A stretch of 64,000 nt of DNA, taken from Candidatus Nezhaarchaeales archaeon (lineage in GTDB: Archaea; Thermoproteota; Methanomethylicia; Nezhaarchaeales; WYZ-LMO8). Position 1 is the first letter of the stretch. Every line of letters starts with the position of its first letter. Of this stretch, positions 1 to 35,011 are shown piece after piece. Location of the stretch: contig JAWAKK010000001.1 of assembly GCA_038887515.1 (NCBI GenBank), positions 390,205 through 454,204 of the forward strand. Reading direction: 5' to 3'. The position numbers were made by a program, and so were the translations under genes. The notes beneath the pieces were generated by a model. The model had not been told where the DNA came from, ran no database searches, and saw only the letters and a list, made by a program, of their open reading frames with translations.

Positions 1-1
1 C

Positions 2-208
2 AACTTAAAGCCGAGCATGAGGACTAGAGCTGCTCTAATAATCACCCACTTAGGGTACATCTTGAATTACGTTAAGGCTGATAGAGCCCACGTGCTCTTC
101 AATGGCAAGATAGCTTGCTCTGGAAAACCTAACGAGATACTGAAGCAGATAATGGAGCACGGATTTGAGAGGTGCCATGAATGCCTTCAGGAACAAGGAG
201 TCAAATAG
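2..208 (+). CDS. sufC: Fe-S cluster assembly ATPase SufC, C-terminal end (gene begins upstream of window)
   Basis: Frame is open from nt 2. Translation '...[47 protein letters not shown]' matches the SufC C-terminus. It overlaps the next gene in an ATGA-type junction. Confidence 0.7.
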
Positions 209-1401
209 AGCAATTAAAGAAGAAGGCTGAAGAAACTTTAACCAAACCCCCTGCTTTCGGGCCAGACTTAGACCTCTCCAAGTACAGGTATGAAGTCGAG
301 AAGCCGAAAGACTGGCTCACAGAAGATCTTATAGAAAGAGCTGAGACCGTTGGAATCGACTTACGCGAGAGGGAGAGATCAGGAACCTACCTACAGCTTG
401 ACCACTACTCAATAATCGAAAAGGCTACAGCAGGCGGCGTAGAAGTCATGAGCATAAGCAAGGCACTTGAAAGTTACGACTGGCTCCTCGACTACTACTG
501 GAAGGCACTAAGCGTCGACATGGACAAGTTCACAGCACTAGCAGAAGTTAAGAGAACTGAGGGTTACTTCATAAGGGCTAAAAAGGGGGTTAAGATAGAC
601 CTCCCAATACAAGCATGCTTATACTTGAAGACTCCAAGGATAGCTCAGAACGTTCACAACATAATAATCGTAGAAGAAGGAGCTGAGCTTCACGTAATAA
701 CTGGTTGCGTTACACCAAAGAAGGCTGAAGGGCTCCACGTAGGAGTTTCAGAGTTCTACGTTAAGAAGGGCGGTAAGCTGACCTTCACTATGATTCACGG
801 ATGGACTGAAGAAGTTGACGTAAGGCCGAGAACAGGTGTGATACTTGAAGATGATGCCTCTTACACCTCAATTTACGTAAACTTAAACCCTGTAAGGACG
901 TTTCAGATGATGCCTAAAGTGTACTTGGAGGGCAGGAATGCGAGGTGCTACTTAGCCTCAATAATAGCAGCCTCAAAGAGCTCCTATTTTGATGTAGGTG
1001 GAGCTACTTATTTAAGAGCCGAGAACACGAAGGCAGAGATAGTCTCAAAGACTGTGGCCAAAGATGAAGCTTACGTTGCTGCTCGGGGCTTCATCGTCGG
1101 CGAGAGGGATGGAGTTAAAGGACATTTAGAGTGTAGAGGGATGCTCCTTTCACCTAAATCAGTGATACTAGCTATTCCAGAACTTGAAGCTAGAGCTAGG
1201 GATGTAGAGTTATCACACGAAGCTGCTGTTGGAAAGATAGCGGAGGAGGAGATATACTACCTTATGGCTAGGGGCTTCAGTGAGGAAGAGGCAACCTCAA
1301 TAATAATAAGAGGCTTCATGAACGTGGATGTGAAAGGCTTACCGCCAGCACTTGCACTACAAATTAAGAAGGCCTTGGACATTAGCGCAAAGAGTCTCTA
1401 G
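181..1401 (+). CDS. sufB: SufB/SufD-family Fe-S cluster assembly protein (406 aa)
   Basis: Directly follows sufC. The C-terminal '[22 protein letters not shown]' is typical of the SufBD beta-helix family. Its length fits the short archaeal SufB/D. Confidence 0.8.
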
Positions 1402-2029
1402 ACATTTTCCTCCCCTCTATCATGGCCTGTGCGAGAAGAGTGTACGCCATCTTGGCAGCTCTCTCAGGCATATAGCAATTGGGAACAAGCCCCTTACCTA
1501 GTATTTCAAGTGCTTGCTCAAACTCTTGCATTCTAACGCCCAAAGGAAGAGTCCAAGCCACAATTATCGGCTTTCCATATCGCCTGCTAGATTCAACGAT
1601 TGCCCTCGAAATGTTGATGGGCGAAGGTGCATGGATTATTGGTGGTGAGATTATCATGTCTATATTAGGGTCTCGGCACATTATTTCAAGAGCCTCTCTA
1701 TACATGTCTATATTTTCAAGAATAGAACCCGTAGTATCTACAGGGTTCGTAACTGAAGCTATTGGTGGTAGAATTGCTTTCAACTTCTCAATGCTCTCCT
1801 TAGTCAGTGAGGGGACTTTAAGGCCATACCTTTCACAAGCTATGACAGCAGGTCCTCCTAGAACCGATATTATTCCAACCCTGTTGCCCTTTGGTCTTAA
1901 GGAGCAGGCAAGGGTCATGGAGAGCTCGTAGAGCTCCTCGAAACTTTCAGCCTGATCTTCAAAGGCCCCTCTGCAATATAGTGTCCGAGGAGGTTCTCGA
2001 TTTTCACTAGACGTTCCATTGACTTGCCC
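1382..2029 (-). pseudogene. C-terminal fragment of an NDP-forming acyl-CoA synthetase (succinyl-CoA-ligase-like flavodoxin domain); N-terminal ~300 codons absent
   Basis: The 178-aa ORF '...GKPIIVAWTLPLG...AQAMIEGRK' resembles only the C-terminal domain of ADP-forming acetyl-CoA synthetase alpha. The frame is open upstream to a stop at 2030-2032 with no further ATG. It is followed by about 300 nt of AT-rich non-coding DNA. Confidence 0.45.
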
Positions 2030-2335
2030 TCAAATGTAATCATCGAGACTTATATATTAAGGATATCCAAAGCCTTGAAAATTAATTTGATGACATAAGA
2101 ACGTTGTAAGCTCAAGAAGCGCTAAGCTCTTCTTTGGGACGTCGAGGCTCCGCATCGTAATAGCTTCTCAAGATAGCATCAATATAGTTGATGACAATTT
2201 ATGAAATGGATAGTCAAATGAATTCGATGTGGCATTTTGATGCTTAAAGGAAAGAGGAGTTGAAGCTTTAAGTGATTTGCGCATCAAGCTTCATTTAGAA
2301 GAAATTTTTAAACTTCCTTCGATTAGCCGCTCATC

Positions 2336-3523
2336 GTGTGGTGGCTAAGCTTCGTCCTTCACGAAGCAGGGTTTAACCTGCTGTTGATATTGCTGCCACT
2401 CTACGTGGTCTCCATTGGTGGATCGCTCACTGATGTAGGCATTATGTGTATGATAGGGCAGCTCGTAGCCATTCCAGCTTCAATGTTTTGGGGCTACATC
2501 TGCGATAAAGCGAGGAGTTACAAGCCCTTCATCATCTTATCCTTCTCATCCCTCTCAATAGCTATATACTCCTTAGTAGTGGTAACTAAAGTAAGTCATC
2601 TGATCTTCCTTTATGCTATATTATCAATATTTCATTCAGCTCACGGTCCTCCACGAAATGTGCTGATAGCAGAACTACACACATATGAAGAATGGAAAAG
2701 GAGCTTTGCAGTATTTGGAGGGTTCGCGGAGATCGGGCGGCTTATAGGATTGCTCATGGGCGCCTACATTTCATTTAGCGGGGCAAGTACCATCTCTCTG
2801 ATATCCTTATGTGGTAGCCTACACATAGCTGCCCTCCTCTTATCCATCATCCTTATTAGAGATCCCATTTTGATTCTAGAGCGCCGTTTAGTATACATAA
2901 AGAGGATGGTGGACTTAGTAGATAGAGGGACTTATGCTTTCTGTAAAGCTCTCGATGGGTTCTCTAGAGTTTGTAACCTTAAGGAGGTGAATGTAAAAGC
3001 TTTTTATGCTGGATTAACCTTCTTCCAAGCAGCATCAACCATGCTCTTCACTCCATTGCCTATATTTCTCTCACGTGAACTAGCCCTCCAACAAGGCCTA
3101 GTCTTCACTATATATACCTTAAACTCCTTGGGTGTTGTTCTAGGTTACTTACACCTAATTTATCGATCTAGCGAAAATGTTGAGAAGACCTCTTTGCTTA
3201 AAGTCGTGCTACTAAGAAGTGTAACGGTCTTCTTAATGTTCATTGCACTATCATCGACCTTTAATGTAGTGATAATTACAGCGTTGCTAACCCTGCTAGG
3301 CTATCTCTATGCGCTATTCTACGTCTATGTGTTGACTATTTCTATGGAGCTTTTACCTCCTAAGAAAGTGGGGTTAATTGACGCCATAATAAACCTGGGC
3401 TCGGTTTATGGAGCCTTTATTGGACAGCTTATAGCCGATAAGGTGGGCTTTAACTACGTGTTCCTATTGAGTGGGCTAACATTCTTCGCTTCATTCATAG
3501 CGTTTAAAGTCTTCAATAGATAG
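2336..3523 (+). CDS. MFS-type transporter, paralog A (GTG start)
   Basis: About 12 predicted TM helices. MFS loop motif 'GYICDKARSYK' lies between TM2 and TM3. It is about 80% identical to the ORF at 33824..35011. Confidence 0.6.
   Translation: MWWLSFVLHEAGFNLLLILLPLYVVSIGGSLTDVGIMCMIGQLVAIPASMFWGYICDKARSYKPFIILSFSSLSIAIYSLVVVTKVSHLIFLYAILSIFHSAHGPPRNVLIAELHTYEEWKRSFAVFGGFAEIGRLIGLLMGAYISFSGASTISLISLCGSLHIAALLLSIILIRDPILILERRLVYIKRMVDLVDRGTYAFCKALDGFSRVCNLKEVNVKAFYAGLTFFQAASTMLFTPLPIFLSRELALQQGLVFTIYTLNSLGVVLGYLHLIYRSSENVEKTSLLKVVLLRSVTVFLMFIALSSTFNVVIITALLTLLGYLYALFYVYVLTISMELLPPKKVGLIDAIINLGSVYGAFIGQLIADKVGFNYVFLLSGLTFFASFIAFKVFNR
2704..2786. repeat. 83-nt tract perfectly identical to 34193..34275 inside otherwise ~78%-identical paralogs
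   Basis: Found by direct comparison of the two MFS copies. Identity drops to about 75-80% immediately on both flanks. Confidence 0.8.
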
Positions 3524-3650
3524 TTGTTTGACCATAAAGCTACTAGCCTAGAAATATGTGTCTTTGATGTAAAATGCTGCTTTAAGAGAAGACCTGAGCA
3601 ACTCTAACTGTTCACACGGCAGTAAGCAACATTAATTAATGTACGCTTCC

Positions 3651-4751
3651 TCAAACTTCAAAATGCTTCGCAAGCACTTTAACTCTTGAGGCTTTAATTT
3701 GCACAAAAACCGTGGCTCCGGGTTTAACATTGAAATCGTCAAGATAATCCGGGTTAATCTCAGCTTTTAGGTTAACATTGCCTAAATCGACGTCAACCTT
3801 AACAACTGATCCTTCCATATACATGCCTTTTACCCTTCCCACCAAGATGTTGCATTGGCAGCCTTTCCACTTCGGCTTGACGATCTCCCTCGTAGGCGAT
3901 AAAATGATATCTTGAGGTTTTATGACAACTATAACATCTTTAACTTTTTCTGGGAAGTTTCCACAACCCTCAGCATTCAAGATAGTGTCTCCAACATCGA
4001 CAGAGACGCGTCCATCCTCGATTGAAATGACATGTCCATCAAGGACATTATAGCCTAAAAATTCTGCGATGAATTTTGAACTTGGATTTTCAAATATAGT
4101 CTCAATAGAGCCTACCTGCTCAATCCTTCCATCACTCATTATGGCTATTTTATCACCGACTGCTCTCGCTTCCAACAGGTCGTGAGTTGTATGTATGACT
4201 GAAGTGCCAAATTGACGGAAGACCTCCTTAAGCATACCGCAGATTTCTCTTCTAAAAACTTCTCTTGTAGGTGGGTCCAGCGCTGAGCACGGTTCATCTA
4301 ACAATAAAACGTCAGGTTTAGCTGCTAAGGCTCTCGCAATAGCCACCCTCTGTTTCTGCCCAGAACTCAGGGACTCGACACTTTTATTCATTAAATTCTC
4401 AATTTGAAGTAGGCGTACGATCCTTTGAAGATCATTTAATCCCATGCCCTTCGATTTCTTAAATGCAAGCTGAATATTCCGCTCAACAGTCATATTCGGG
4501 AACAACACGTAATCAGCTGGTACATACCCGACTCTCCTCTTTTCTGGTGGAAGATCCGTGACGTCAATTCCGTTAATTATTATCTTTCCGGAATCGATCT
4601 TCTGAAGACCGGCTATGCATTCAAGCAGCGTCGTCTTTCCACATCCATTGGGGCCCATTAACGTAAGAATTGTGCCGCACTGAACTTCAAAGCTAATATC
4701 TGTTAAGAAGAAGGAGCCTCGTTGTGCATGCAAATTTAAAACAGTTATCAT
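3651..4751 (-). CDS. ABC transporter ATP-binding protein with C-terminal TOBE/Mop domain (ModC/WtpC-like)
   Basis: Walker A 'GPNGCGKTT' and signature 'LSSGQKQRVAIARAL' are present. A roughly 130-aa C-terminal extension is typical of molybdate/tungstate/sulfate importer ATPases. Confidence 0.75.
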   Translation of the reverse strand: MITVLNLHAQRGSFFLTDISFEVQCGTILTLMGPNGCGKTTLLECIAGLQKIDSGKIIINGIDVTDLPPEKRRVGYVPADYVLFPNMTVERNIQLAFKKSKGMGLNDLQRIVRLLQIENLMNKSVESLSSGQKQRVAIARALAAKPDVLLLDEPCSALDPPTREVFRREICGMLKEVFRQFGTSVIHTTHDLLEARAVGDKIAIMSDGRIEQVGSIETIFENPSSKFIAEFLGYNVLDGHVISIEDGRVSVDVGDTILNAEGCGNFPEKVKDVIVVIKPQDIILSPTREIVKPKWKGCQCNILVGRVKGMYMEGSVVKVDVDLGNVNLKAEINPDYLDDFNVKPGATVFVQIKASRVKVLAKHFEV

Positions 4752-5554
4752 ATAGCGAGCCCCCCGTACAAGAGCTTTCTAGTAGCTATTAATGCTAGGC
4801 AAGCTGTGAAGAGGAGAATAAATGACAAAGCAGCCACATTTCCTAAGTCTGCTGCAACGAGATTAAGATAGAGCGCGATGGGTAAGGTTTCAGTCTTGAA
4901 TCTAGTAGCACCGGCAAGCATGAGTGTTGCGCCAAACTCTCCCAACGCTTTAGCCCAAGATATGAGGGCTGCTCCAAGAATGCATCGCTTAGCAGCTGGC
5001 AACGTTACATATAGGAAAGTCTCCAACTCCGTGTATCCAAATGTCCGAGCAACTCTTTCATAGCGAGCAGGTACTCCATCGAAAGTCTCTTTTAGGAGCT
5101 TTATTGTTAAAGCGCTTATTACAGCTAATTGGGCTACGATGATCCCCGGGACTTCGAAGACAATCCTTACAACACTTTCATTTATGAACATACCTAGAGG
5201 ATTTCTCGCGAAGAAAATAAGTAGCATAACTCCTAGTGCGACTGGAGGAACTGCTATAGGTACGTCTAGGAAGCCTTCAATCACGGTTTTCCCCCGAAAT
5301 TCGAGACGAGATAGAGCGTAAGCTACTGGAATGCCGATGACTAGAGAGATTAAAGTTGAACATGTAGCGGTAAAGATTGAGAGGGAGAGAGCGAACCTTA
5401 CTTCATCAGAGATAAAAGCATATGCGAGCTGCCAAGGATCAACAAAGATTGCTGGCGATGTAAAGACGCATAAGAAGAATATCAAAATGAGTATTAAGAA
5501 GGAGAACACTACGACTCTGAACACATTGGGCTTCATGCTACCCAAGCTCCTCAA
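4748..5554 (-). CDS. ABC transporter permease (ModB/WtpB-like)
   Basis: Six-TM permease with an EAA-like loop. It overlaps the ATPase by 4 nt. Confidence 0.75.
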   Translation of the reverse strand: MRSLGSMKPNVFRVVVFSFLILILIFFLCVFTSPAIFVDPWQLAYAFISDEVRFALSLSIFTATCSTLISLVIGIPVAYALSRLEFRGKTVIEGFLDVPIAVPPVALGVMLLIFFARNPLGMFINESVVRIVFEVPGIIVAQLAVISALTIKLLKETFDGVPARYERVARTFGYTELETFLYVTLPAAKRCILGAALISWAKALGEFGATLMLAGATRFKTETLPIALYLNLVAADLGNVAALSFILLFTACLALIATRKLLYGGLAI

Positions 5555-6401
5555 TTATTGCATTTGGAGCATAGGCTCTAGCTTCCTCTAATGTCGAGAA
5601 GTATCCATACTTTGCCCAAACGCCATGCATGTCCTGTGAAGTTAAGAAGTCTAGAAACTTCTCGGCAAGAACTTTATTTTTACTATATGTTGACACTGCT
5701 CCAGCTATGTAGCCTATCTTCAGGATCTTATTCGGTTCGATCCACACGATGTCAGTCTTCTCGGGGCTCCAATAATGGAAAACGTGCCACCCGATTACGG
5801 CATCCACAGTACCAATGTAGATTAGCTGAGCCGTCGCCTCGCAGCTAGCCGCGTAAACAGCAATATTCTTACTAACAGCTTCCCAAAGCCCATTTATCTC
5901 TAAAAGCTCCTTAGCGTAAAGACCGACACAAACAGATTTAGGATCAGCTATTCCAACATGGATTCCAGGTCTTGCAAGATCCTCAATTGACGTGATGTTC
6001 TTCGGATTTCCTTTCTGAACAATGATTGCTGGAACTAGATAAGCAAGTATTTTTGCTGGGTGCTCAGTAAGGTTAACAACATTCCTCTCATTTGCCAAAA
6101 TAAGATATTCTGGCGAACCCGGAATATAGACGTCGCCTGTTCTTGCAATTTCCATAGACGACAGCAAACTCCCTGAGCCACCAAGCTTCAACTCAACTTT
6201 AATGCCATACTTCGATTCAAAAATGCTAGCAGCTTCTCTATAAACGGGAGCGGCGGCTGCACCAGCGAATACGACGATCGATTGATCTGCTGGGTTGCTA
6301 CCATAGAACGTATAAATGACTACTCCAAGTGCAACTAATATGAGACCAATCAGAGAAGATATGTTCAAAAGTCTCAAATGAGACCTGCTTGGCTTCATCA
6401 A
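5538..6401 (-). CDS. Molybdate/tungstate-type periplasmic substrate-binding protein (ModA/WtpA family)
   Basis: N-terminal signal anchor. 'GGSGSLLSSMEIARTGDVYIPGS' is similar to the ModA 'GSSG...AD.F.SA' region. It is the first gene of the three-gene transporter operon. Confidence 0.65.
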   Translation of the reverse strand: MMKPSRSHLRLLNISSLIGLILVALGVVIYTFYGSNPADQSIVVFAGAAAAPVYREAASIFESKYGIKVELKLGGSGSLLSSMEIARTGDVYIPGSPEYLILANERNVVNLTEHPAKILAYLVPAIIVQKGNPKNITSIEDLARPGIHVGIADPKSVCVGLYAKELLEINGLWEAVSKNIAVYAASCEATAQLIYIGTVDAVIGWHVFHYWSPEKTDIVWIEPNKILKIGYIAGAVSTYSKNKVLAEKFLDFLTSQDMHGVWAKYGYFSTLEEARAYAPNAIIEELG

Positions 6402-6598
6402 TTATCGTCCTTTTATTGCTGGGAAGAGATGGTTATATCTTCAACCTTATAAGACCTACTGAAAACTAGTTTTAACTTTCTATAGTTAACAATTTAATTT
6501 AAATTCATAGTAATGGCGTAGAGCTTATGGTTTCTGGAGTAATGTTTATAAGCAAATTCATATCATTAGTGTTACGAACTGATAGTTAAGGTGTTACC

Positions 6599-7252
6599 AT
6601 GCATATACCAGATGGTTTTCTAGATTTTACCACAGCTACCTTAACATATCTCGTAACCATCGGCTATGGCTATGTAGCTTGGAGGAGGTTCAAGGTCTCC
6701 TTTGCTCCTGAAAGAGTATCGCTTCTAGTTATCCTCTCAGTAGCAATATTTGTGGCTCAAATGTTGAATTGGCCTTTACCTGGAGGTACTAGCCTGCACT
6801 TTGTTGGTGGAGCATTAGCTGGAATGCTGCTTGGCCCTTTACTTGGCTTCATATCGTTAGCGCTAGTTGTTGGCGTTCAATGCATCATCTTCCATGACGG
6901 TGGAGTAACTACGCTTGGAGCCAACCTCTTAAACATGGCGATAATCGCGGTACTAGTGGGTTACGCAACATTCAAGATTACCATCAAGCTCATAGGAAAT
7001 AAGCGAAGCTCAAGAGCTATAGGTGCATTTATAGGTGGATGGCTGAGTATCGTGCTAGCTGGTCTTGCGTGTGGTCTTGAGATAGGTTTGTCGCCGGCAT
7101 TTGGCTTTTACATTGACGTCACAGTCCCAGTAATGGTTGGGTGGCATGCGATATTAGGTGTAGTAGAGGGTGTGATAACTTCCCTCGTGGTTGACTTTAT
7201 CTACACGAGATTACCTATGGCGACCTATAAGGGTGAGGGGGTAAAAGCATGA
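6599..7252 (+). CDS. cbiM: Cobalt ECF transporter substrate-capture component CbiM
   Basis: N-terminus 'MHIPDGFL' is the characteristic CbiM start. It is a multi-TM protein. Confidence 0.8.
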   Translation: MHIPDGFLDFTTATLTYLVTIGYGYVAWRRFKVSFAPERVSLLVILSVAIFVAQMLNWPLPGGTSLHFVGGALAGMLLGPLLGFISLALVVGVQCIIFHDGGVTTLGANLLNMAIIAVLVGYATFKITIKLIGNKRSSRAIGAFIGGWLSIVLAGLACGLEIGLSPAFGFYIDVTVPVMVGWHAILGVVEGVITSLVVDFIYTRLPMATYKGEGVKA

Positions 7253-7560
7253 GCAACCTCATCAAGAGCAAGAAGGCTTGGACAACAATAATAGTACTAC
7301 TAATTCTAAGCCCAATATTTGGTGTAGTACTAGCTGATATCGTCGGCTATCATGAGCCTCTCGATCTAGCAGCTGAAGCTATAGGTCTTCGTGATGTGAG
7401 CGAGGAAATAACTTGGACTCCATTCTTCGACTACAACGTTCCTGGCTTGCCAGCTGAGATCGGCTACATCATTAGTGGAGCTATAGGGGTCATTGCTATC
7501 ACGATGATAGGTTATGGAATCTTAAAATTGGCTGAGAAGAGAGTGAGGAGAAAGGTGTAA
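7249..7560 (+). CDS. cbiN: Cobalt transport protein CbiN
   Basis: 103-aa two-TM protein in 4-nt overlap with cbiM. This matches the canonical cbiMN arrangement. Confidence 0.7.
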   Translation: MSNLIKSKKAWTTIIVLLILSPIFGVVLADIVGYHEPLDLAAEAIGLRDVSEEITWTPFFDYNVPGLPAEIGYIISGAIGVIAITMIGYGILKLAEKRVRRKV

Positions 7561-7563
7561 TCT

Positions 7564-8355
7564 TTGTCTAAGAGCCTCTTATCATCGTTTTTAAACGGCA
7601 TAGCCGATGTGTTGGAGGTCTTCTCGTTTGAGAGGAAAGAAGATGTAAAGCTCTTTGACGACAGATCTATTTCTATTTCACTCTTAACGCTAGCTATCGC
7701 TGTCTCTTTCTCTAAGACCGTATATTCACCTCTAATAGTGCTCTTACTAATAGCCATACTAGCAAGGCTATTCAAAGTAGATGTTAGATACACGCTGAAA
7801 GTAGCAAGCGTAGTGGCTATCTTTGTTATGGGAGTAACGCTCCCAATGGCTTTGTACCAAGCATACATCAGCTACGATGTTAAAGGAGGCTTACTCGCAA
7901 GCTTAATGCCAATAGCGAGCAGCGTCACCATCCCACTAATATTAAGAGCTGTTGCAGCAGCTACTGCCGTAACGCTTATGGTTCAATGCTTGGGGTTAAC
8001 AAGATTAATGAAGGTGCTTAGAAGTCTAAGGTTTCCTCCAAAGCTCCTCTTCGTATTAACGTTATACATTAGGTACATACCCATAATGCTAAGACGGTTA
8101 GTAAGATTATTTTCAGCTCGTGAAGCGCGTTTACTGAGCAAAAGTAAATCGAAGAATTCTTGGTTTATGCTGTCAACGGTAGCAGGGAGCTTACTCATAA
8201 TTGGGTTTGAAAAAGCTCTTAGATTACAAATGGCTCTTAAAGCCAGGGGACTCCACTATGATTTGATCCCAACATATTCAGGAAAAATTAGCTTACAGGA
8301 TTCAATATTCATGGCATTAATGCTTGGATTAGCTTTCATGTTGGTGTTGATGTGA
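7564..8355 (+). CDS. cbiQ: ECF transporter transmembrane (T) component CbiQ (TTG start)
   Basis: Polytopic protein positioned between cbiN and cbiO. Confidence 0.7.
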   Translation: MSKSLLSSFLNGIADVLEVFSFERKEDVKLFDDRSISISLLTLAIAVSFSKTVYSPLIVLLLIAILARLFKVDVRYTLKVASVVAIFVMGVTLPMALYQAYISYDVKGGLLASLMPIASSVTIPLILRAVAAATAVTLMVQCLGLTRLMKVLRSLRFPPKLLFVLTLYIRYIPIMLRRLVRLFSAREARLLSKSKSKNSWFMLSTVAGSLLIIGFEKALRLQMALKARGLHYDLIPTYSGKISLQDSIFMALMLGLAFMLVLM

Positions 8356-8356
8356 A

Positions 8357-9289
8357 ATGAGTGAAAATGAGCCCCTAAAGCCACTAATAGAGCTTGAGAA
8401 TGTGTCATACACATATCCTGATGGAACTTGCGCACTTAAGAAGATTAGCGTTAAAATACCAGAGAAGAGCATTATTGCGATAACAGGGGCTAATGGATCC
8501 GGTAAGAGCACCTTGCTTCTGATAATGGCCGGCTTATTAGATCCTCAAGAGGGCTGCGTTAGGTTTAGAGGCATAGACATGAAGAAGCTTGGACACAAAG
8601 TAAGGCGCGAAATAGGAGTAGTCTTTCAAGACCCCGATGATCAGCTCTTCGCACCAACAGTCTACGACGACATAGCCTTTGGCTTAAGGCTTCTGAAGTT
8701 AAGTGAGAAAGAAGTTAGAGCGCGCGTCTATGAGATAGCGCGCGAGCTGGGCATCGAGAACTTGCTGAATAGACCTCCACATAGGCTTAGTGGTGGCGAG
8801 AAGCGTAGAGTAGCTCTCGCCACAACTCTGATCTTAAATCCATCAGTACTACTCCTAGACGAACCCTTCTCAGACTTAACTCCTTACGCAGTCGAGTACT
8901 TAATGGACTTTATCATGAAGCTTAGAGGCTCTGGGAGGACCATAGTGTTCACGAGTCACGATATAGACATCGTCGCTGAGTTATCCGATTACGTCTACGT
9001 CTTAGCCAAAGGTCAGTTAATAGCTCAAGGAAAGCCTAACGAGGTTCTGTGCAACGATGAGCTGTTGAGCAAAGCCGAGATGAGACCTCCAACAGTGACG
9101 ATCATATATAGAGAGCTTATGGGCTATAGTGATAGATGTCCCATTAAGATGTCAGAACTTTTATCAATACTAAGAAGTAGAATCGTAGCCCCTCATTCGC
9201 ATGATGGTGTGGCATGCAATAAGTTTGCCTTAAGTGAGGAGAAAATCAGCTATCTAACAAAATCACCACAATATGATGGGAGTTTCTGA
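8357..9289 (+). CDS. cbiO: ECF transporter ATPase CbiO
   Basis: Walker A 'GANGSGKST', signature 'LSGGEKRRVALA', and the Q and H loops are present. Confidence 0.8.
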   Translation: MSENEPLKPLIELENVSYTYPDGTCALKKISVKIPEKSIIAITGANGSGKSTLLLIMAGLLDPQEGCVRFRGIDMKKLGHKVRREIGVVFQDPDDQLFAPTVYDDIAFGLRLLKLSEKEVRARVYEIARELGIENLLNRPPHRLSGGEKRRVALATTLILNPSVLLLDEPFSDLTPYAVEYLMDFIMKLRGSGRTIVFTSHDIDIVAELSDYVYVLAKGQLIAQGKPNEVLCNDELLSKAEMRPPTVTIIYRELMGYSDRCPIKMSELLSILRSRIVAPHSHDGVACNKFALSEEKISYLTKSPQYDGSF

Positions 9290-9514
9290 CGGCGATGACG
9301 ATCACCATGGCATAATGACATCAACATGCGATGAGAGGGCTGTAGATTATTAATGTCATAACCTAAATGATGAGATTCATCTCGTATTATCGTCACGTGA
9401 CTAAAGTCAACAGCTATGATAGGATAGGAGAAAGGCTACGGATGGATTATTCATCCAAAGTCTTTATAACTCTGAATTTAAGAGACAGCGAGGGGTGTCG
9501 GTGGTTTTTAGGAG

Positions 9515-9841
9515 ATGAAGGCTATCATTATAATCGGTGATGGAATGGCTGATCGACCGTTAGAGGAGCTCAACTTCATGACTCCATTGGAAGCTACTAG
9601 AGTAAACAACATGAACTGGCTTGCCTCAAATGGCATTTCAGGGCTTCTCTGTTCAACAGTTCCTGAAAGTGATGTAGCGAACTTAGCCGTCTTCGGCTAT
9701 GATCCCTCTAGCGTTTACACTGGTAGAGGGGGGTTCGAAGCTGTTGGAGCTGGAGTCCAACTTTTGGATGAAGATTTAGCTTTTAGATGCGACTTCGCCA
9801 CTATTCTTACAGCTCTATCAAGGAGCTCTACGAGGTTGTAG
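9515..9841 (+). pseudogene. apgM: N-terminal ~100-codon remnant of archaeal cofactor-independent phosphoglycerate mutase (ApgM)
   Basis: 'MKAIIIIGDGMADRP...TPLE...GISGLL.TVPE...SDVANLAVFGYDP...YTGRGGFEAVGAGV...AFRCDF' matches the ApgM N-terminus. The ORF stops after 108 aa, whereas the full protein is about 410 aa. Confidence 0.55.
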
Positions 9842-10182
9842 AACGTGTCCCTAAATATCCCGCATATCGTGACCACTACATCTATTCTAGGTCTACCGAG
9901 CTCTGAGAGAGGTATTACTTCGAGGTCCCTAATGTACAGGCCTCTCCAAACAGGTTTTACACCTAGAAGGTGGAATATTGCTGCTAGCGTCTCTCCACCG
10001 GTCTTCATGGTCTCAAAGGCCCATAAAACAACGCCAACGGCCTTCGGGTACCTCCCATTCTTCTGGTAGAACCTCTTAAGATATTCTTCAGCTATCTTCT
10101 TACCTCTCTCCTCCTTCTTGCAATCTTCACTACGCCTACTATCAAAAATGGTATCGCAATGGCGAACCAAACTGCTACCCAT
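9715..10182 (-). pseudogene. cobN: Internal fragment of cobaltochelatase CobN / Mg-chelatase H family
   Basis: 'YPKAVGVVLWAFETMKTGGETLAAIFHLLGVKPVW...LEVIPLSELGRPRIDVVVTICGIFRDTF' matches a conserved CobN block. The ORF is 155 aa, whereas CobN is over 1000 aa. It overlaps the apgM remnant. Confidence 0.55.
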
Positions 10183-10220
10183 AATGGAGAAAGAAAACCA
10201 TCCATTATATGCATAGGAAT

Positions 10221-10237
10221 CACTAGCTGGATAGATT
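10221..10237. promoter_or_regulatory. Perfect 7-bp inverted repeat CTGGATA-gat-TATCCAG in the intergenic region upstream of cbiC
   Basis: Read directly from the sequence. Candidate operator or hairpin. Confidence 0.3.
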
Positions 10238-10445
10238 ATCCAGCCAACTCATATAAAACTTACCATCAACGTAATTACTGTTGGGAAGAGATGTCTTAAA
10301 GCAAGATGTTGGCTTCTCTGTTTATGAAGTCGTGACCGCACTTAGCCTATATTAAGGTTAGATGGTCAACTTACTTAGCCATTTAAGGACGAGGTCTAGA
10401 GTGAAGTTTAAATTGTTGGTTAGCTTCACCTATCCTTAAGGCTGG

Positions 10446-11129
10446 ATGGGTTATCCAACCATGGATCAACATCACGATCCTGATGACATTCAAGCTTCGA
10501 GGGCACTTCTATCCATGAGCATCAATAAGGTTAGAGAGCTTATTGGAGATTACTTAAGAAGTTTGCCAGCAAGCCATGCGAGAATCGTTGAGCGAGTCGT
10601 GCATGCTACTGCGGATCCAGAGTTTGCTAAACTAGTAGTTATAAGTAATGGAGCTGTCGAAAGTGGGATCAAAGCCATAAGGGCTGGCGCAAAGGTCGTG
10701 ACCGACGTTAAGATGGTTAAAGCCGGGTTGAGAGAAGTAGGGCTTAGAAGGTTTGGAGGAAGAGTTGAGTGCTACGTGGATGATGAAAGAGCCATTAAGG
10801 TAGCTCGAGAAGAAGGAATAACTAGAACTGCAGCGGCAATGCGAGTCGCCGTCGAGATGGGGTTAAACGGAGCGATAGTCCTGATCGGGATATCTCCCAG
10901 TGCAACACTTGAGCTGGTTTCAGCTATTAAGAGAGGAGAAGCAAAGCCAGCTCTGATAGTTGCAACACCAGTTGGTTTCATAGGGGCTAGAGAGTCTAAA
11001 GAGGAGGTCATGAAGCTACCAATCCCCTACATAGTCGTAACAGGTTCAAAGGGTGGTAGCCCCGTAGCTGTAGCAATATTCAATGCGCTATTAACGTTAG
11101 CAGAAGAGGGTATGGAGGGCTTCACTTGA
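10446..11129 (+). CDS. cbiC: Cobalt-precorrin-8 methylmutase CbiC
   Basis: 'HATADPEFAKLVVISNGAVESGIKAIRAGAKVVTDVKMVKAGL' matches the CbiC/CobH core. Its size is about 210-230 aa. Confidence 0.75.
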   Translation: MGYPTMDQHHDPDDIQASRALLSMSINKVRELIGDYLRSLPASHARIVERVVHATADPEFAKLVVISNGAVESGIKAIRAGAKVVTDVKMVKAGLREVGLRRFGGRVECYVDDERAIKVAREEGITRTAAAMRVAVEMGLNGAIVLIGISPSATLELVSAIKRGEAKPALIVATPVGFIGARESKEEVMKLPIPYIVVTGSKGGSPVAVAIFNALLTLAEEGMEGFT

Positions 11130-12214
11130 AGTTTCTAAAGTACGGGATTTCGACAGGTGCATGTGCAGCTGCTGCAGCTAAAGCTGCTGCTCTAGCCTTG
11201 ATGGGGGTCAAGACTGATAAAGTCAGCATTCCAACACCTATTGGACTACGACTTGAAGTACCTGTTGAAGGGTGTCGAAGAATCGACGATGAGAGGGCAG
11301 TGGCTTGGGTGGTAAAGGATCCTGGAGATGACGTTGACGTAACTAGGGGGCTTAAAATACATGCTACTGTTAGGCTTACTAGAGATGGAGAGATCGTCAT
11401 AAAAGGTGGAGAAGGCATCGGAGTAGTCACCAAGCCTGGATTACCAGTCCCCGTAGGAGAGGCGGCTATAAACCCCGTGCCCAGAATGATGATCAAACAA
11501 GCTCTTCAAGAAGTACTGCCTCCAGGCATTGGCGCCGAGGTCTTGATAGAGGTCCCCGGCGGTGATGAGGTAGCAAAGAGGACCCTCAACCCAAAGCTTG
11601 GCATCATTGGAGGAATATCGATTCTAGGCACCACCGGAATCGTGAAACCACACTCTACTTCAGCATATAAGCGTTCGCTCTCAGTTCAAGTAGACGTAGC
11701 TTTGGCTAATGGGCATGATAGAATAGTCATAGTTCCTGGGAACGTTGGTGCGAGGGTTGCCAGACAGCTCCTCAAAATCCCAGATGAGGCTATAGTGCAA
11801 GCAGGCGACTTCATCGGCTACATGCTTCGTAAAGCAGTAGAGAAGGGGGTGAAAGAAATCCTGCTAGTTGGACATGCAGGTAAGCTTGTGAAGATCGCAG
11901 CAGGCATCTTCAATACTCATCATAAAGTTGCTGATGCTAGAATGGAGGTCATTGCAGCATATGCTGCTGCAGCAGGAGCTGATAATCATCTAGTTAAGAG
12001 AATCTTAGAAGCTAACACAACGGAGGAGGCTATTAAGCTCCTTCAACTTCATGGAATCCTTAAGCAAACCTTCAACATGATTGCTGATAGAGCCAGGTCT
12101 AGGTGCATTGACCTAATCGATGGAAGGGCAAACGTAGGCATCATAATAGTGTCGCTTGAAGGTGAGGTTTTAGGAGTTAGTGGCGTTGATAGGTGGTTGT
12201 CAGCACATGGCTAA
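11126..12214 (+). CDS. cbiD: Cobalt-precorrin-5B (C1)-methyltransferase CbiD
   Basis: 'GISTGACAAAAAKAAALAL' is the CbiD signature. Length is 362 aa. Confidence 0.85.
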   Translation: MKFLKYGISTGACAAAAAKAAALALMGVKTDKVSIPTPIGLRLEVPVEGCRRIDDERAVAWVVKDPGDDVDVTRGLKIHATVRLTRDGEIVIKGGEGIGVVTKPGLPVPVGEAAINPVPRMMIKQALQEVLPPGIGAEVLIEVPGGDEVAKRTLNPKLGIIGGISILGTTGIVKPHSTSAYKRSLSVQVDVALANGHDRIVIVPGNVGARVARQLLKIPDEAIVQAGDFIGYMLRKAVEKGVKEILLVGHAGKLVKIAAGIFNTHHKVADARMEVIAAYAAAAGADNHLVKRILEANTTEEAIKLLQLHGILKQTFNMIADRARSRCIDLIDGRANVGIIIVSLEGEVLGVSGVDRWLSAHG

Positions 12215-12887
12215 GATCTACATTGTCGGCGCTGGTCCAGGAGATCCTGACTACGTGACTCCAATTGCCAGGAAGATGGTTAGGCAGGCGGAGTTGGTAA
12301 TAGGCTCAGAGAGAGCAGTTAAGCTCTTCAATAACGACGTAAGAGGAGAGGTCATCATTCTCGATTCGAGGAATTTTAGGGAGGTAATGGTTTACGCTGT
12401 AGAACGAGCAAGAAGTGGAGCAAACGTAGTAATGGTATCCACAGGAGATCCTGGCTTCGCTGGTCTACTTGGAACATTCATAAAGAGTTTTGGAACAAAA
12501 TTGGACGTGGAGGTTGACGTCATCCCTGGAGTAAGCGTCATTCAAGTATGCGCTGCTAAACTCAAGATCTGTTGGGATGATGCTGTCCTAATTAGTCTTC
12601 ATGAGGGCGCAACCGAAGAAAAGAGGAGGAGACTGGCTGGAGCTGTTAAGTCGGGTAAGACGGTAATCCTCTTGCCAAACACTAGGTCTTTCACTGTCAG
12701 GGATGTCGTGAAGTACCTCTTGAGCGAGGGAGTAGACGAGGAGACAATCGCGTACGTGTGCGAGGACTTAACTCTTAGTAGTGAGAGGATCGTTAAAGCC
12801 ACTTTAAGAGAATTAATGTCCTACGAGGGTAGCTCTCTATGCGTTATGGTGATCACTCCAAGGAGGGGTAATTGTGTGGAGCTATAA
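12207..12887 (+). CDS. cbiE: Cobalt-precorrin-7 (C5)-methyltransferase CbiE
   Basis: 'MAKIYIVGAGPGDPDYVT' is a tetrapyrrole-methylase N-terminus. The likely start is the ATG at 12207, within the ORF that is open from 12180. Confidence 0.75.
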   Translation: MAKIYIVGAGPGDPDYVTPIARKMVRQAELVIGSERAVKLFNNDVRGEVIILDSRNFREVMVYAVERARSGANVVMVSTGDPGFAGLLGTFIKSFGTKLDVEVDVIPGVSVIQVCAAKLKICWDDAVLISLHEGATEEKRRRLAGAVKSGKTVILLPNTRSFTVRDVVKYLLSEGVDEETIAYVCEDLTLSSERIVKATLRELMSYEGSSLCVMVITPRRGNCVEL

Positions 12888-13467
12888 AACACCTGGAATA
12901 CCGGATGAGCTCTTCATAACTAGCGATAAGGTTCCTGGACCAACCAAAGAAGAGGTAAGAGTTGTGACCATATCGAAGGCAAGGCTTAAGGAGGGATGTC
13001 GCGTTGCTGATGTTGGTTGTGGTGTTGGAAGCATAACTGTCGAAGCTGCATTAATTGTTGGCTCTACGGGGAAAGTATACGCTATTGATAAAGATGAAGA
13101 GGCTATTAGAATCACGAAGCTGAACGTGGCTAAATTTGGCGTTCAAGATCGCGTTCAGGTAATACTTGGGAAAGCTTCTAAGGTTCTTGAGCTAATCCCG
13201 GAGGTCGATAGCATAATAATAGGAGGTGGAAGGCCCTTATCCAAGGTCCTTGAAGCTGCTGTTAAGAGACTGAAGTTTGGTGGACGCATCGTAATCAATG
13301 CGGTCACTGTTGAAACGGCGAGTAGAGCTATCAAGATGCTCAAGAAGATGAAGTTCGGTGAGCTGGAAGTAGTTAACGTATCTATCGCTAAAGGCAAGCT
13401 TACCAACGCGGGAACTATCATGCTGGCTAGGAACCCTGTTTTCGTAATATCTGCGTCAAAATCTTGA
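12874..13467 (+). CDS. cbiT: Cobalt-precorrin-6B (C15)-methyltransferase (decarboxylating) CbiT (GTG start)
   Basis: 'VADVGCGVGSITVEAA...VYAIDKDEEAI' is a class I SAM-binding motif. Position after cbiE matches the cbiET pairing. Confidence 0.75.
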   Translation: MWSYKTPGIPDELFITSDKVPGPTKEEVRVVTISKARLKEGCRVADVGCGVGSITVEAALIVGSTGKVYAIDKDEEAIRITKLNVAKFGVQDRVQVILGKASKVLELIPEVDSIIIGGGRPLSKVLEAAVKRLKFGGRIVINAVTVETASRAIKMLKKMKFGELEVVNVSIAKGKLTNAGTIMLARNPVFVISASKS

Positions 13468-13477
13468 GGGAGCTATA

Positions 13478-13996
13478 TTGCTAGGCAAGTTATATGGTGT
13501 GGGTGTTGGTCCAGGCGACCCTGACTTACTGACTTTGAAGGCTGTAAAGGTTTTGGGTGATGTGGACGTAATATTCGCTCCAAAACCCAGCACTGACAAG
13601 CCTAGCTTAGCACTGACGATTGTTAAGCCAATGCTTAGAGACCATCAGGAAGTGGTAGAACTTGTCTACCCGATGACTAAGGAAAGAGAGGTCTTAGAAG
13701 CTTGTTGGGAAAAGAATGCTGACCTGATAATCTCAAAGCTCATGACAGGAAAGAACGCAGCCTTCATAACGTTAGGAGACCCCATGCTCTACAGCACCTT
13801 CATATATACTTGCAGGAAGATTGTAGCTAAAGCTCCTGACGTGGAGATAGAGATAGTCCCAGGAGTTACATCGATAACGGAATGTGCTGCAATCTCAAGG
13901 ACGTCCATAGCAGAAGGAGATGAAGTAGTGGTGATAATCCCTTCACTGAGTGATCGCGAAAAAATTAGAGGTCTAGCGAAGAAGCTACATCAATAA
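13478..13996 (+). CDS. cbiL: Cobalt-factor II C20-methyltransferase CbiL, C-terminally truncated (172 aa vs ~220-240 expected)
   Basis: 'MLGKLYGVGVGPGDPDLLTLKA' is the CbiL/CobI N-terminus. The protein ends shortly after '...VVVIIPSLSD' and lacks the last roughly 60 residues. Confidence 0.65.
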   Translation: MLGKLYGVGVGPGDPDLLTLKAVKVLGDVDVIFAPKPSTDKPSLALTIVKPMLRDHQEVVELVYPMTKEREVLEACWEKNADLIISKLMTGKNAAFITLGDPMLYSTFIYTCRKIVAKAPDVEIEIVPGVTSITECAAISRTSIAEGDEVVVIIPSLSDREKIRGLAKKLHQ

Positions 13997-14061
13997 TCAT
14001 AAGGGGCTTCATGGAGATAGACGTTAAAGGCTTACCGCCACTATTAGCTTCTCTCAGATAA
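13975..14061 (+). pseudogene. Relic of the 3' end of a SufB/SufD-family gene
   Basis: An alternate frame reads '[27 protein letters not shown]'. The intact sufB at 1290-1401 reads '[30 protein letters not shown]'. The frame is closed by a TAG just upstream at 13966-13968. Confidence 0.5.
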
Positions 14062-14111
14062 AGAGGGCATTAGATGTAGCGACCAAAGGCGTCCAGACAA
14101 CCTCCTTTCAC

Positions 14112-14135
14112 TTTCAGCTAAAAGCTAAAAGCTAA
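14112..14135. repeat. Tandem heptamer (GCTAAAA)x3
   Basis: 'agctaaaagctaaaagctaaaag'. Confidence 0.6.
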
Positions 14136-14249
14136 AAGAATTTAATCAATAATTTATAGAAAGTCCACATACAAAACTGAAAAATTAAAACATAGTTGAA
14201 AAGATGAATGAAGTACGTCTTGGGGTGTTAGTGAAGTACATGCCATTGC

Positions 14250-15179: not shown

Positions 15180-15260
15180 AGGTTTAAGTTTAAACCCCAA
15201 TTATACAGACTAAGGTATGTGGACGCTGTTGCGATGAAACCATTTGCGACTATTGATTGG

Positions 15261-16511: not shown

Positions 16512-16659
16512 CGGCTCGCCTCAAACACTCGCCGGAATAAACGCTAATTACTACTCAACGCTGAGGCTTCTACCTATAACTATAGATTTGCTTTAAACTT
16601 TATGTCTAATAGGCCTTCAAAATGATTGGTTTAGCAGGTCTCTATCGACCTTTTCATGT

Positions 16660-17721: not shown

Positions 17722-18010
17722 TAGCCGTTTTCCTTATAATATTAATTTGACACATATTTTAGCCTTTACCATGTTTTTCCTTACGGCCATAAACGGATTA
17801 ATTCTTCTTTCTCGCAATAAGCGGGGTTGCCCCACGTGGGCTATATTGCCCCCTTTAAATTTTTTATTTACTATAATTCTTCATTATTTGCTGCGTTCTC
17901 AACGCCTTTCTATATCTATTAGATCTTTAAATGTGAGGAAATGACTACACGTAGTCGCCCAACTACAAAACTTAGAAAGTTCCGCTTCTGATAGACGTTC
18001 TCGACAAACC

Positions 18011-32159: not shown

Positions 32160-33443
32160 TTAAATGAAGCCCGGCTCTAGCTTCTCGACTTCTCGACACT
32201 CCTCCAACTTAACGTATCCCAGTTTTACAGCTCTGACCCGTTCAACGCTCCTTAAAGGAGTCGATATCAACGCTTTCGCAGATTTAAAGTCTATGTTCTT
32301 CAGTATTCCTAAATCTAGGAAGACGCCTCTCTCGCCCATTAACCCTACAACGAGCCCACGTTCAAACCCCTTTATCAAGGTCCTGATAGCTCTATCGGCG
32401 AATGCGTTTCTAATGTCTCTGTAAAACTCTTTGTTTTCCGGAGGCTTCTCTAAAACTATTACTACCGAGTCGCAGGAGAGCTCACAATATTCAACTTTAC
32501 AGCCAGCCATTGACTCTATTGCTTGGACAACTTCTGGAGGAGCTTTATATCCGCTGCCCATGAACGAACCTACTATAGCCACCCTATCCAAGCTTAAGGT
32601 ATGGTCTACCAACCCCCTCTTAGTAAAGTAGTTATAGAAGGCTCTTTCGCGCAATGCCTTACGATCATTGCGATTACGTTGTCTAACCCAAGGAGAAGCT
32701 GGTAGCTCAACTACGCTGTATCCTAGAGCTTTAAACTGCTTTGTTAGATGCTTGAGCTCATTGTTTCTCTGGAGAGCAACTATGACGCTGGGATTTAAAG
32801 TCTCGACGGTGTAGAGCTGGTAAGCTCTTGCGGGTCCTCCGTAAACCATGCCTGGCGTATCTATCAAGACCGCTCCTCCAGCCTTTACTGCCTCGTTCAC
32901 TAGTTTTAAGGTCCCCGTAACCATTGGCAGTAGGTGGCCAGCAGGAGAGGTCGAGCCTACAAAGTAGGCAGAAGTTAGGGGGGCTTCTTCGAGAAATGCT
33001 ATTTGCCTATCTAAAACGCTTAATCCTATTGTCGTGGGAGGGCCTATATCTGATTGACCTACATCACAGTCAACTACTGAAACCCTAAAACCCTTGGCGA
33101 GAAGCTTGTTCGCAGTGTAAGTGACGAAGAAGGTCTTGCCAGAGTCTATGTAGCCCAGCGTAAATATTATGGAGTCTTTAGACAGCGAGTCTATTAGGTT
33201 AACCCACTCTTTAGGTACCGTTGAGGTTTCGAGCTTGGTTATAGAGCCGCTTCCTCTAAGCTCTATTTTAGCTTCAGCAGGCGCCTCTATGAGTGTGGCT
33301 TTGGACATTGGTATGATGACTTCTTCACTTGCATTAAGGCTTTTGCCCGTAACCTCCATAAAACCTTCAATTAACTTGATCTTTAAAGGTCCTTCCGCGA
33401 TATAGTAGCCTGCAATTCTCTCAATTTTCCCCGGAAGCACCAT
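32160..33443 (-). CDS. Clp1/Grc3-family polynucleotide 5'-hydroxyl kinase
   Basis: P-loop 'GYIDSGKTFFVTYTANKL' and downstream 'VVDCDVGQSDIGPP'. Its length of 427 aa is typical of archaeal Clp1. Confidence 0.6.
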   Translation of the reverse strand: MVLPGKIERIAGYYIAEGPLKIKLIEGFMEVTGKSLNASEEVIIPMSKATLIEAPAEAKIELRGSGSITKLETSTVPKEWVNLIDSLSKDSIIFTLGYIDSGKTFFVTYTANKLLAKGFRVSVVDCDVGQSDIGPPTTIGLSVLDRQIAFLEEAPLTSAYFVGSTSPAGHLLPMVTGTLKLVNEAVKAGGAVLIDTPGMVYGGPARAYQLYTVETLNPSVIVALQRNNELKHLTKQFKALGYSVVELPASPWVRQRNRNDRKALRERAFYNYFTKRGLVDHTLSLDRVAIVGSFMGSGYKAPPEVVQAIESMAGCKVEYCELSCDSVVIVLEKPPENKEFYRDIRNAFADRAIRTLIKGFERGLVVGLMGERGVFLDLGILKNIDFKSAKALISTPLRSVERVRAVKLGYVKLEECREVEKLEPGFI

Positions 33444-33823: not shown

Positions 33824-35011
33824 ATGTGGTGGTTAAGTTTCGTCTTCCACGAAGCTGGGTTTAACTTACTATTGATATTCTTACCGCTCTACGTAGTTGC
33901 TATTGGTGGATCACTTATCGATGTCGGCATTATGTGTATGATCGGTCAACTCTTAGTTATTCCAACCTCGATGTTTTGGGGTTACGCTTGCGATAAGACT
34001 AGAAGTTACAAGTTCTTTATCCTCCTGTCATTTCTATCCCTCTCGGTAATAATTTACTCCTTTATGATAGCCACGAAGGTAAGCCACCTAATAATCCTAT
34101 ATGCTGCATTATTTATTTTCCATTCAGCTCACGGTCCTCCGAGAAACGTGTTGATAGCAGAGCTATATACCTACGAAGAGTGGAAAAGGAACTTTGCAGT
34201 ATTTGGAGGGTTCGCGGAGATCGGGCGGCTTATAGGATTGCTCATGGGCGCCTACATTTCATTTAGCGGGGCAAATACTGCCTCCCTAATAACCCTATGT
34301 GGTAGCCTACACATAGTTGCTTTCATTTCATCTATCGTCCTTATTAAAGATCCCATAGTAATATTGGAGCGTCGTTTAGTAACTATAAGAAAGGTCGTAG
34401 ACTTCATAAATAGTGGAGTATCTACCCTTTGTAAAGCCCTCGACGGTCTCTCTAGAACCCCTACTTATAGAGGGGAAAACATAAAGGCTTTTTGTAGCGG
34501 CTTAACTTTTTTTCAAATGGCATCGTCCATGCTTTTTACCCCTATGCCCATATTTCTTTCACGTAAACTAGCTCTTCAACAAGGCATGATCTTTGCAGTG
34601 TACGCCCTAAATTCTCTGGCTGTGATTTTAGGTTACCTATACTTAATTCATAGACCGAGCGAAACTGTTGATAAGACTTCTCTGCTTAAAATAGTATTAT
34701 TAAGAGGCGTGTTAGCCTTCTCAATGATCGCCGCATTATCATCAACATTCAGCATAGAAGCAATTACAGCCTTATTAGCTCTACTAGGCTACCTCTACGC
34801 GCTGTTTGACGTCTACGTATTGACTATCTCTATGGAGTTTCTACCGCCTAAAAAAGTGGGGCTTATTGATGCTACAATAAACTTAGGCTCAGTCTGCGGA
34901 GCATTTATTGGGCCTCTCATCGCTGATATTATGGGCTTCAATTACGTTTTCCTGTTAAGTGGCATAACGTTCTTTGCTTCATTCGTAGCTTTTAAAGCCT
35001 TCAACAAGTAG
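33824..35011 (+). CDS. MFS-type transporter, paralog B (ATG start)
   Basis: About 80% amino-acid identity to the ORF at 2336..3523. About 100 nt upstream are also similar. Confidence 0.6.
   Translation: MWWLSFVFHEAGFNLLLIFLPLYVVAIGGSLIDVGIMCMIGQLLVIPTSMFWGYACDKTRSYKFFILLSFLSLSVIIYSFMIATKVSHLIILYAALFIFHSAHGPPRNVLIAELYTYEEWKRNFAVFGGFAEIGRLIGLLMGAYISFSGANTASLITLCGSLHIVAFISSIVLIKDPIVILERRLVTIRKVVDFINSGVSTLCKALDGLSRTPTYRGENIKAFCSGLTFFQMASSMLFTPMPIFLSRKLALQQGMIFAVYALNSLAVILGYLYLIHRPSETVDKTSLLKIVLLRGVLAFSMIAALSSTFSIEAITALLALLGYLYALFDVYVLTISMEFLPPKKVGLIDATINLGSVCGAFIGPLIADIMGFNYVFLLSGITFFASFVAFKAFNK
34193..34275. repeat. 83-nt tract identical to 2704..2786
   Basis: See the partner repeat. Confidence 0.8.

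Follow-up and report, generated by a model that had tools for sequence, protein, structure and literature searches.

Ectopic gene conversion between paralogues of one genome has been described for mtrA-1 and mtrA-2 of methanogens, which are homogenized in this way (PMC4632066). In Sulfolobus acidocaldarius, transformation with marked pyrE DNA revealed a short-patch, uncoordinated resolution of heteroduplex mismatches during recombination (Mao & Grogan 2012, PMC3367456). Gene flow between species, with homologous or illegitimate integration of chromosomal DNA, has been reported for Sulfolobus islandicus (PMC3283564) and for haloarchaea (PMC3542582). Here we analysed a 64,000-nucleotide (nt) stretch (the window, to which all coordinates refer unless another genome is named) of a 776-kb contig in a metagenome-assembled genome (MAG) of Candidatus Nezhaarchaeales. 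It carries two genes for predicted major facilitator superfamily (MFS) transporters. Gene A lies at 2336..3523 on the + strand (GTG start, 395 amino acids (aa), NCBI MEM4576240.1) and gene B at 33824..35011, also on the + strand (ATG start, 395 aa, NCBI MEM4576271.1). The two genes share an identical tract of 83 nt that is real and lies far beyond chance. Comparison with orthologues strongly supports gene conversion as its source, with B as the donor and A, a laterally acquired copy, as the recipient.

As in the mtrA pair, copying between homologues of one genome appears to have been non-reciprocal, and the phylogeny of the tract conflicts with that of the rest of the gene. Unlike that pair, in which old paralogues underwent long-lasting homogenization, the partners here are a native gene and a recent xenologue, ~ 75% identical, with a single 83-nt patch. 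Common to this locus and S. acidocaldarius are a thermophilic host from the Thermoproteota, very short tracts between moderately diverged DNAs and a possible discontinuity (2699-2700 and 2703 here). The S. acidocaldarius work was experimental, whereas for Nezhaarchaeales we infer the pathway on mechanistic grounds only. As in S. islandicus and the haloarchaea, a segment near-identical to that of another species lies in a diverged backbone and has mosaic donor ancestry. Unlike there, the segment appears to have integrated ectopically by microhomology, its homologue was not replaced, and the second copy would then have interacted with the resident one. The event is thus of a known kind and does not represent a new kind of system; what distinguishes it is the pairing of a xenologue with a native gene, the identity of only ~ 75% between the partners and the very short, clean tract.

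The identical tract and the direction of copying

Genes A and B are both located on the single 776,437-bp contig. They are predicted transporters of the MFS_1 family (PF07690): the Pfam profile matched A with an E-value of 6e-26 (91.6 bits) and B with 6e-22 (78.5 bits), well above the gathering cut-off of 33.4, and the match covers residues 3-346, nearly the full length, in both. Between start and stop, the codon alignment is free of gaps, and each position of B lies 31,488 nt from its counterpart in A. Both reading frames are present as proposed in the initial annotation of the window. That annotation had put the overall nucleotide identity at about 75-80%, in agreement with the measured 75.8%, and the protein identity at about 80%, which is slightly too high (75.8%; 300 of 396 columns). 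By codon position, the identity is 79%, 89% and 60% for positions 1, 2 and 3, respectively. Upstream of the genes, homology continues with indels for ~ 390 nt, as far as the relic of a CLP1 start described below; the similar leaders had been noted correctly but their extent, given as about 100 nt, was too short. At the 3' end, homology stops at the stop codon. The difference between GTG and ATG starts is real but reflects a lineage trait, as the orthologue of A in a related genome (L001) also starts with GTG.

The longest exact run shared by A and B is 83 nt, at 2704-2786 in A and 34192-34274 in B. Its length and its position in A had been given correctly, whereas the position in B (34193-34275) was off by +1. 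No other identical run is longer than 21 nt, and the two that follow measure 20 and 17 nt. In sliding windows of 50 nt, the identity is 0.98-1.00 within the tract and 0.58-0.88 in the rest of the gene. The drops at the flanks are thus as sharp as proposed, and identity is not uniformly high across the gene. It does extend to synonymous positions: all 27 codons of the tract are identical, compared with 144 of 272 codons (53%) that specify the same amino acid outside it. When codon columns were shuffled 100,000 times, the longest run averaged 21.9 nt and reached 56 nt at most, none being 57 nt or longer, which bears out the earlier view that the run is unlikely to have arisen by chance. The tract has a G+C content of 53%, higher than in gene A (42.5%) and in the window (43%).

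Perfect identity that includes synonymous sites, together with a G+C content of 53% in a gene of 42.5%, might also be expected if selection at the nucleotide level preserved the tract, for example as an embedded RNA, a binding site or an internal promoter. However, the synonymous sites of the tract vary freely among orthologues (B differs from them at 9-25 sites), the window contains no Rfam match, and neither strand folds better than shuffled sequences (z = +0.37 and +0.55). The comparison of orthologues thus contradicts this explanation, and we reject it.

To obtain the history of the tract, homologues were found by protein search and their DNA was then compared. The A lineage is represented by 13 near-identical orthologues (L001, L002, L011-L019; "L001-type") from independent NCBI, JGI, ENA and Logan assemblies. 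Further loci were L003-L006 ("L003-type"), with proteins 84% identical to that of A, L007 from run SRR32459161, which is closest to B at 87% nucleotide identity, and the more distant L008-L010. Gene A is 94.1% identical to the L001-type genes overall and 99.6% identical over 3044-3523; gene B is 74.5% identical to the L001-type genes. Outside the tract, A is 91-99.6% identical to its orthologues and 69-76% identical to B. Within the tract, A does not differ from B at any site, whereas each of the 13 L001-type genes differs from A at the same 20 sites and the L003-type genes differ at 17. Counted from B, the tract differences are 20 for the L001-type, 17 for the L003-type, 9 for L007 and 25 for L008. 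The patch of gene conversion proposed earlier is thus strongly supported, and the incongruence between tract and flanks relative to the 13 orthologues now gives it a direction, from B to A.

The same result was obtained from the triplet of A, L001 and B. Of 303 informative sites, 257 are L001-type in A, 39 are B-type and 7 are neither (296 usable sites), and 20 consecutive B-type sites lie at 2710-2785. The maximum-excursion statistic was 21, compared with at most 8 in 200,000 permutations, and the union-bound P for the run is 3e-18. The converted tract in A (2704..2786, + strand) therefore has a maximum extent of 83 nt and a minimum, given by the informative sites, of 2710-2785; it corresponds to residues ~ 124-150. 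The donor copy in B (34192..34274, + strand) is of the B-lineage type: 11 of its 20 diagnostic states are common to L007 and none is L001-type. Gene A also carries three alleles that are otherwise private to B (2737G, 2758G and 2782G). These identify the donor as B, or as a sequence indistinguishable from it, and not just any B-like lineage. To judge from these states the transfer was non-reciprocal and left the donor unchanged.

At the protein level, A and B both read FGGFAEIGRLIGLLMGAY in the tract, whereas all A-lineage sequences read FEKFAEVGRLTGLLAGAY. All L001-type proteins read ...FAVFEKFAEVGRLTGLLAGAY..., the L003-type proteins ...FEEFAEVGRLIGLLAGAY... and L007 FGWFAEIGRLIGLLIGAY. Five amino acid changes in A (E128G, K129G, V133I, T137I and A141M) stem from the patch, in which no mutation has occurred since it was copied. 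Two further B-type positions, 2699-2700, lie just outside the main tract, with an A-type site (2703) in between; they may belong to the same event, which would then be slightly discontinuous. Additional patches copied from B to A were considered and rejected, as A shares most of its other B-like states with L003, L007 and L008, which makes them ancestral.

Native gene B and the foreign block with gene A

In relatives for which enough of the locus was available, the canonical gene order is Lhr helicase - peptidase M42 - CLP1 - MFS - ABC (TOBE)/permease/binding protein - CbiMNQO. The MFS gene is present as a single copy in the recovered loci, between CLP1 and the ABC transporter, and is thus kept beside a ModABC-like transporter. 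In L001-type genomes, CbiMNQO is followed by nitroreductase, methyltransferase, pyruvate kinase and Vut_1. In the window, this context is divided, with the CLP1 side at B and the ABC side at A. The region upstream of B (26137-33429) is syntenic with L001 at 73-78% nucleotide identity, and a region far downstream (43184-46045) is 72-82% identical to it. Next to B is a native CLP1-like gene (32160..33443, - strand; Pfam CLP1_P), syntenic with L001 and L003 at 73-75% nucleotide identity and the ancestral upstream neighbour of the MFS gene. Downstream of B are genes for a 297-aa protein, a tRNA_bind protein and an NMT1-type ABC transporter, which differ from the genes of the block around A; L007 has the same context of CLP1, MFS, 297-aa protein and tRNA_bind protein. 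The CLP1 synteny and the L007-like context identify B as the native positional orthologue and A as the xenologue.

Gene A is part of a foreign block of 7.26 kb (1947..9203) that is colinear with the CLP1'-MFS-ABC/BPD/SBP-CbiMNQO locus of other Nezhaarchaeales. Positions 1947-9173 are 94.1% identical to L001 9611-16836. In windows of 100 nt, the identity to L001 rises from ~ 35% to 90% at 1946/1947, is 98-100% over most of 3044-6943 and falls at ~ 9171-9203. The best segments of the block are 98-100% identical to two other Nezhaarchaeales species, the backbones of which are 72-82% identical to this genome. All genes of the block encode transporters. Behind gene A is an ABC transporter (3651..6401, - strand), consisting by Pfam of an ATPase with a TOBE domain, a permease and SBP_bac_11, and 98-100% identical to L001-type loci; its domain content identifies it as a putative ModABC-like transporter of the molybdate/tungstate type. 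It is followed by CbiM-(N)-Q-O genes for Ni/Co uptake (6599..9289, + strand), recognized from Pfam matches, from gene sizes in relatives and from the junction alignment.

The block is a mosaic. Positions 1947-3043 are ~ 90-96% identical to the L001 type, 3044-6900 are 98-100% L001-like and 6900-8250 are 98.5-99.5% L003-like. In the last of these, the CbiM-CbiQ part (compared with L003 19447-21191), identity to the L001 type is 81-93%; the reverse holds in 3044-6900. The imported block is thus itself an inter-species recombinant, and 1947-3043 probably came from an unsampled sister lineage. The block starts with a relic of CLP1 (1947..2019, - strand), the first 24 codons of the donor gene, which aligns with L001 9611-9683, the 5' end of a CLP1_P gene at 8400-9683. 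By tblastx, the relic matches the N-terminus of the native CLP1 (33372-33428). The similar leaders of A and B are orthologous CLP1-MFS intergenic regions.

These results bear on the initial annotation, in which A and B were duplicated genes: the MFS gene would have been duplicated within the genome, the copies would have diverged to ~ 76% and a conversion patch would have followed recently. Two copies on the same strand, 31.5 kb apart and with similar upstream regions, agree with such a history. Yet A matches orthologues from another species at 94-99.6% identity, whereas the genome around it has ~ 75% identity to that species; A is also closer to the L001 type (94%) than to B (75.8%). It is accompanied by 6 kb of equally foreign neighbours and by the relic of the donor's upstream gene, and the recovered loci of relatives contain one copy in the canonical context. 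A duplication is thus rejected as extremely unlikely, in favour of lateral acquisition. The pair consists of a native gene and a xenologue, and the background identity of ~ 76% reflects the divergence of species, not divergence after a duplication.

The left edge of the block interrupts a native gene. The reading frame at 1382..1918 (- strand) encodes 178 aa with only the C-terminal Ligase_CoA_2 domain and is truncated at its 5' end; by Pfam and tblastn, it resembles the alpha subunit of ADP-forming acetyl-CoA synthetase (ACD), and homologues align to ~ 1955-1975 in tblastn. In another genome of the Nezhaarchaeales (L025), a full ACD-like gene of 483 aa lies beside SufBD, as in the window, and nucleotide homology to the window stops at 1955. 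Homology to the native ACD-like gene runs to 1954, and the 8 nt TCAGCCTG (1947-1954) are common to the native gene and the donor. This overlap points to an illegitimate left joint mediated by microhomology. The N-terminal remainder of the ACD-like gene was sought across the window and none was found. Either native DNA was lost on insertion, therefore, or the right joint was made at another native site. At the right joint the stop codon of CbiO has been lost, and the predicted protein is extended from 283 aa to 310 aa.

The window contains no tRNA, no repeat flanks the block and no integrase was found by Pfam among its genes. The block thus does not qualify as an integrative mobile element; at its left joint there is only the 8-nt microhomology.

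Assembly support and the proposed course of events

A second assembly of the locus was available as Logan contigs of run SRR21619495 (k = 31). One contig (L020) equals window 1-2733 without mismatch and stops 30 nt into the tract. Another (L021) starts at 2757, 30 nt before the end of the tract, and equals the window without mismatch to 19289, the limit of the sequence compared; its total length of 31,465 bp corresponds exactly to 2757-34221, that is, to 30 nt into the tract copy of B. This single contig thus links the tract of A to that of B. A third (L102) starts at 34245, 30 nt before the end of the B copy, again without mismatch. Breaks at k - 1 = 30 nt inside each end of the tract are the pattern expected of a genuine 83-nt repeat in a k = 31 graph. 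The contigs reproduce both borders of the tract on the A side, with 31-mers that join A flanks to B-type tract, and both junctions of the block.

These data also bear on the possibility that the block, the patch or both are chimeras made in assembly or polishing from co-occurring Nezhaarchaeales. Organisms similar to L001 and L003 are present in the sister runs SRR21619489-92, the block combines L001-like with L003-like sequence, and the patched allele comes from one sample. However, the second assembler gave 1-2733 and 2757-19289 without mismatch, including both junctions and the A-side borders. Switching between the paths of an L001-type A and of B requires shared k-mers, and the identity of these two at the edges of the tract is at most ~ 6 nt (informative sites 2703/2710 and 2785/2787). 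Furthermore, B is in the same assembly, so reads from B map better to B than to A. We consider an artefact very unlikely.

The k = 31 graph fits either pairing of flanks across the 83-nt node. The patch could thus be associated with a crossover, with A5'-tract-B3' on the chromosome and B5'-tract-A3' on an excised circle of 31,488 bp, or a mixture of integrated and excised molecules; in that case, the two exchange points would lie 83 nt apart. Direct repeats 31.5 kb apart can recombine and excise a circle, and the B5'-A3' pairing would restore the canonical order of CLP1, MFS and ABC. On the other hand, the deposited 776-kb contig joins A5' to A3', and a repeat of 83 nt, being probably shorter than the reads, should be resolvable. 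The genes on the circle would be ordinary chromosomal ones (Lhr, M42, CLP1, the cbi cluster and an S8 protease), in synteny with those of relatives. The contiguous, colinear block of 7.26 kb is the simpler primary state, from which the crossover topology can be derived by one crossover, and that topology still requires an 83-nt conversion tract of B type. We therefore consider a crossover origin improbable. The same holds for a more dynamic form, in which the MFS copies and their tract act as direct repeats and 31.5 kb with the metal-uptake block and the cobalamin genes excise and re-integrate: chromosomal and circular forms with hybrid MFS genes would coexist, and the patch would be the footprint of repeated crossovers, but we doubt that this occurs. 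Integration of a Campbell-type circle at the MFS gene as the primary event was rejected, since gene A has L001-type sequence to the left and right of the tract and carries a CLP1 relic of its own.

We consider it very likely that a foreign block was inserted ectopically and that a patch of the resident MFS gene was then copied from B into A. The native MFS gene is B, in the ancestral order Lhr - peptidase M42 - CLP1 - MFS. A contiguous piece of 7.26 kb from another lineage of Nezhaarchaeales, a recombinant of L001-like and L003-like DNA with the start of CLP1, the MFS gene, the ModABC-like transporter and CbiMNQO, would have inserted ~ 31.5 kb from B. Insertion would have occurred by illegitimate recombination, the left joint using the 8-nt microhomology and truncating the native ACD-like gene, and the right joint removing the stop codon of CbiO. 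Afterwards, or possibly in the same event, the incoming A would have paired with its resident homeologue B despite an identity of ~ 75%, and 76-83 nt of B would have been copied into A by a short, non-reciprocal conversion of the heteroduplex. The comparisons above show the tract, its donor and direction, where the block begins and ends and that it is foreign, and the sequences of both junctions. The order of events and a pathway of heteroduplex formation and short-patch repair are inferred, and the patch is presumably neutral and not selected.

Several points weigh against this course of events. Over the kilobase at its 5' end, the block is only ~ 91% L001-like, and the true donor of this part is therefore unsampled. 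Canonical homologous recombination does not usually act on partners of ~ 75% identity that have no identical run of more than ~ 20 nt at the tract edges. Only the deposited MAG contig shows which left flank is joined to which right flank across the 83-nt repeat, and the MAG and the Logan contigs may share one sequencing run, in which case the assembler is independent but the sample is not. Finally, A and B were not found in other samples, and the patched allele is known from a single population: exact-protein look-ups of A (in its M- and V-initial forms) and of B returned no contig on record, and JGI metagenomes, scanned for the left tract border specific to A, gave 0 matches. Among GTDB species genomes, protein A had no relative when these were scanned.

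The locus provides a well-resolved natural example of three linked processes: a recent transfer of a metal-uptake block between species, its ectopic integration by microhomology and a very short conversion between homeologues of ~ 75% identity. The host is an uncultivated archaeon of hot springs, from an order that possibly metabolizes methane or alkanes. The data suggest that recombination in Nezhaarchaeales tolerates high divergence and makes short patches, as in the experiments with Sulfolobus. They also call for caution with MAGs, in which pairs of apparent paralogues can be native genes and xenologues, and in which short identical tracts break k-mer assemblies.

Surroundings of the block

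To the right of the block is a scar of ~ 1.2 kb (9204..10445) composed of gene fragments. It contains the N-terminus of a phosphoglycerate-mutase-like protein (PhosphMutase; 9515-9841, + strand), a CobN/Mg-chelatase fragment (9715-10182, - strand; profile positions 731-838 of 1090) and an N-terminal relic of CbiM (10092-10223, - strand) that faces a cluster led by cbiC. The fragment region (9150-10500) has no match in the locus of any relative compared. The scar suggests repeated rearrangement, and a native cbiMNQO operon was possibly lost at this spot.

Near the left edge, a segment of 63 nt at the C-terminal end of SufBD (1285-1347) is repeated directly, with 83% identity, at 13978-14040, just past the TP_methylase gene of the cbi cluster. 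The latter copy may be a relic of another SufB/D gene.

Inside the block, an intergenic segment of 53 nt (6446-6498) upstream of the SBP_bac_11 gene is 79% identical to the intergenic segment 39437-39489, which precedes the gene for the native NMT1-type binding protein. Apart from this, the genes behind the two segments are dissimilar in DNA, and the pair may represent a shared regulatory site or a chance match.

The locus also varies in gene content among the relatives. A DUF401 gene lies between Metallophos and Lhr in L001- and L003-type genomes (L001 2125-3369) and has no counterpart at window 27731-27821. In L003-L006, a set of CbiA-like, Oxidored_nitro, Mur-ligase/CfbE_C and NifH-like genes (~ 14600-19440) lies between the ModABC-like genes and cbiM; the set resembles the genes for synthesis of coenzyme F430, and neither L001-type genomes nor the window have it at this position. 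Upstream of CLP1, an aldehyde dehydrogenase gene is intact in L005 (6540-8045, 501 aa) and split into 2-3 reading frames in L003, L004 and L006 (~ 6534-8046). The three assemblies with the split gene are otherwise ~ 99.9% identical, and the split could reflect either a pseudogene polymorphism or sequencing frameshifts.

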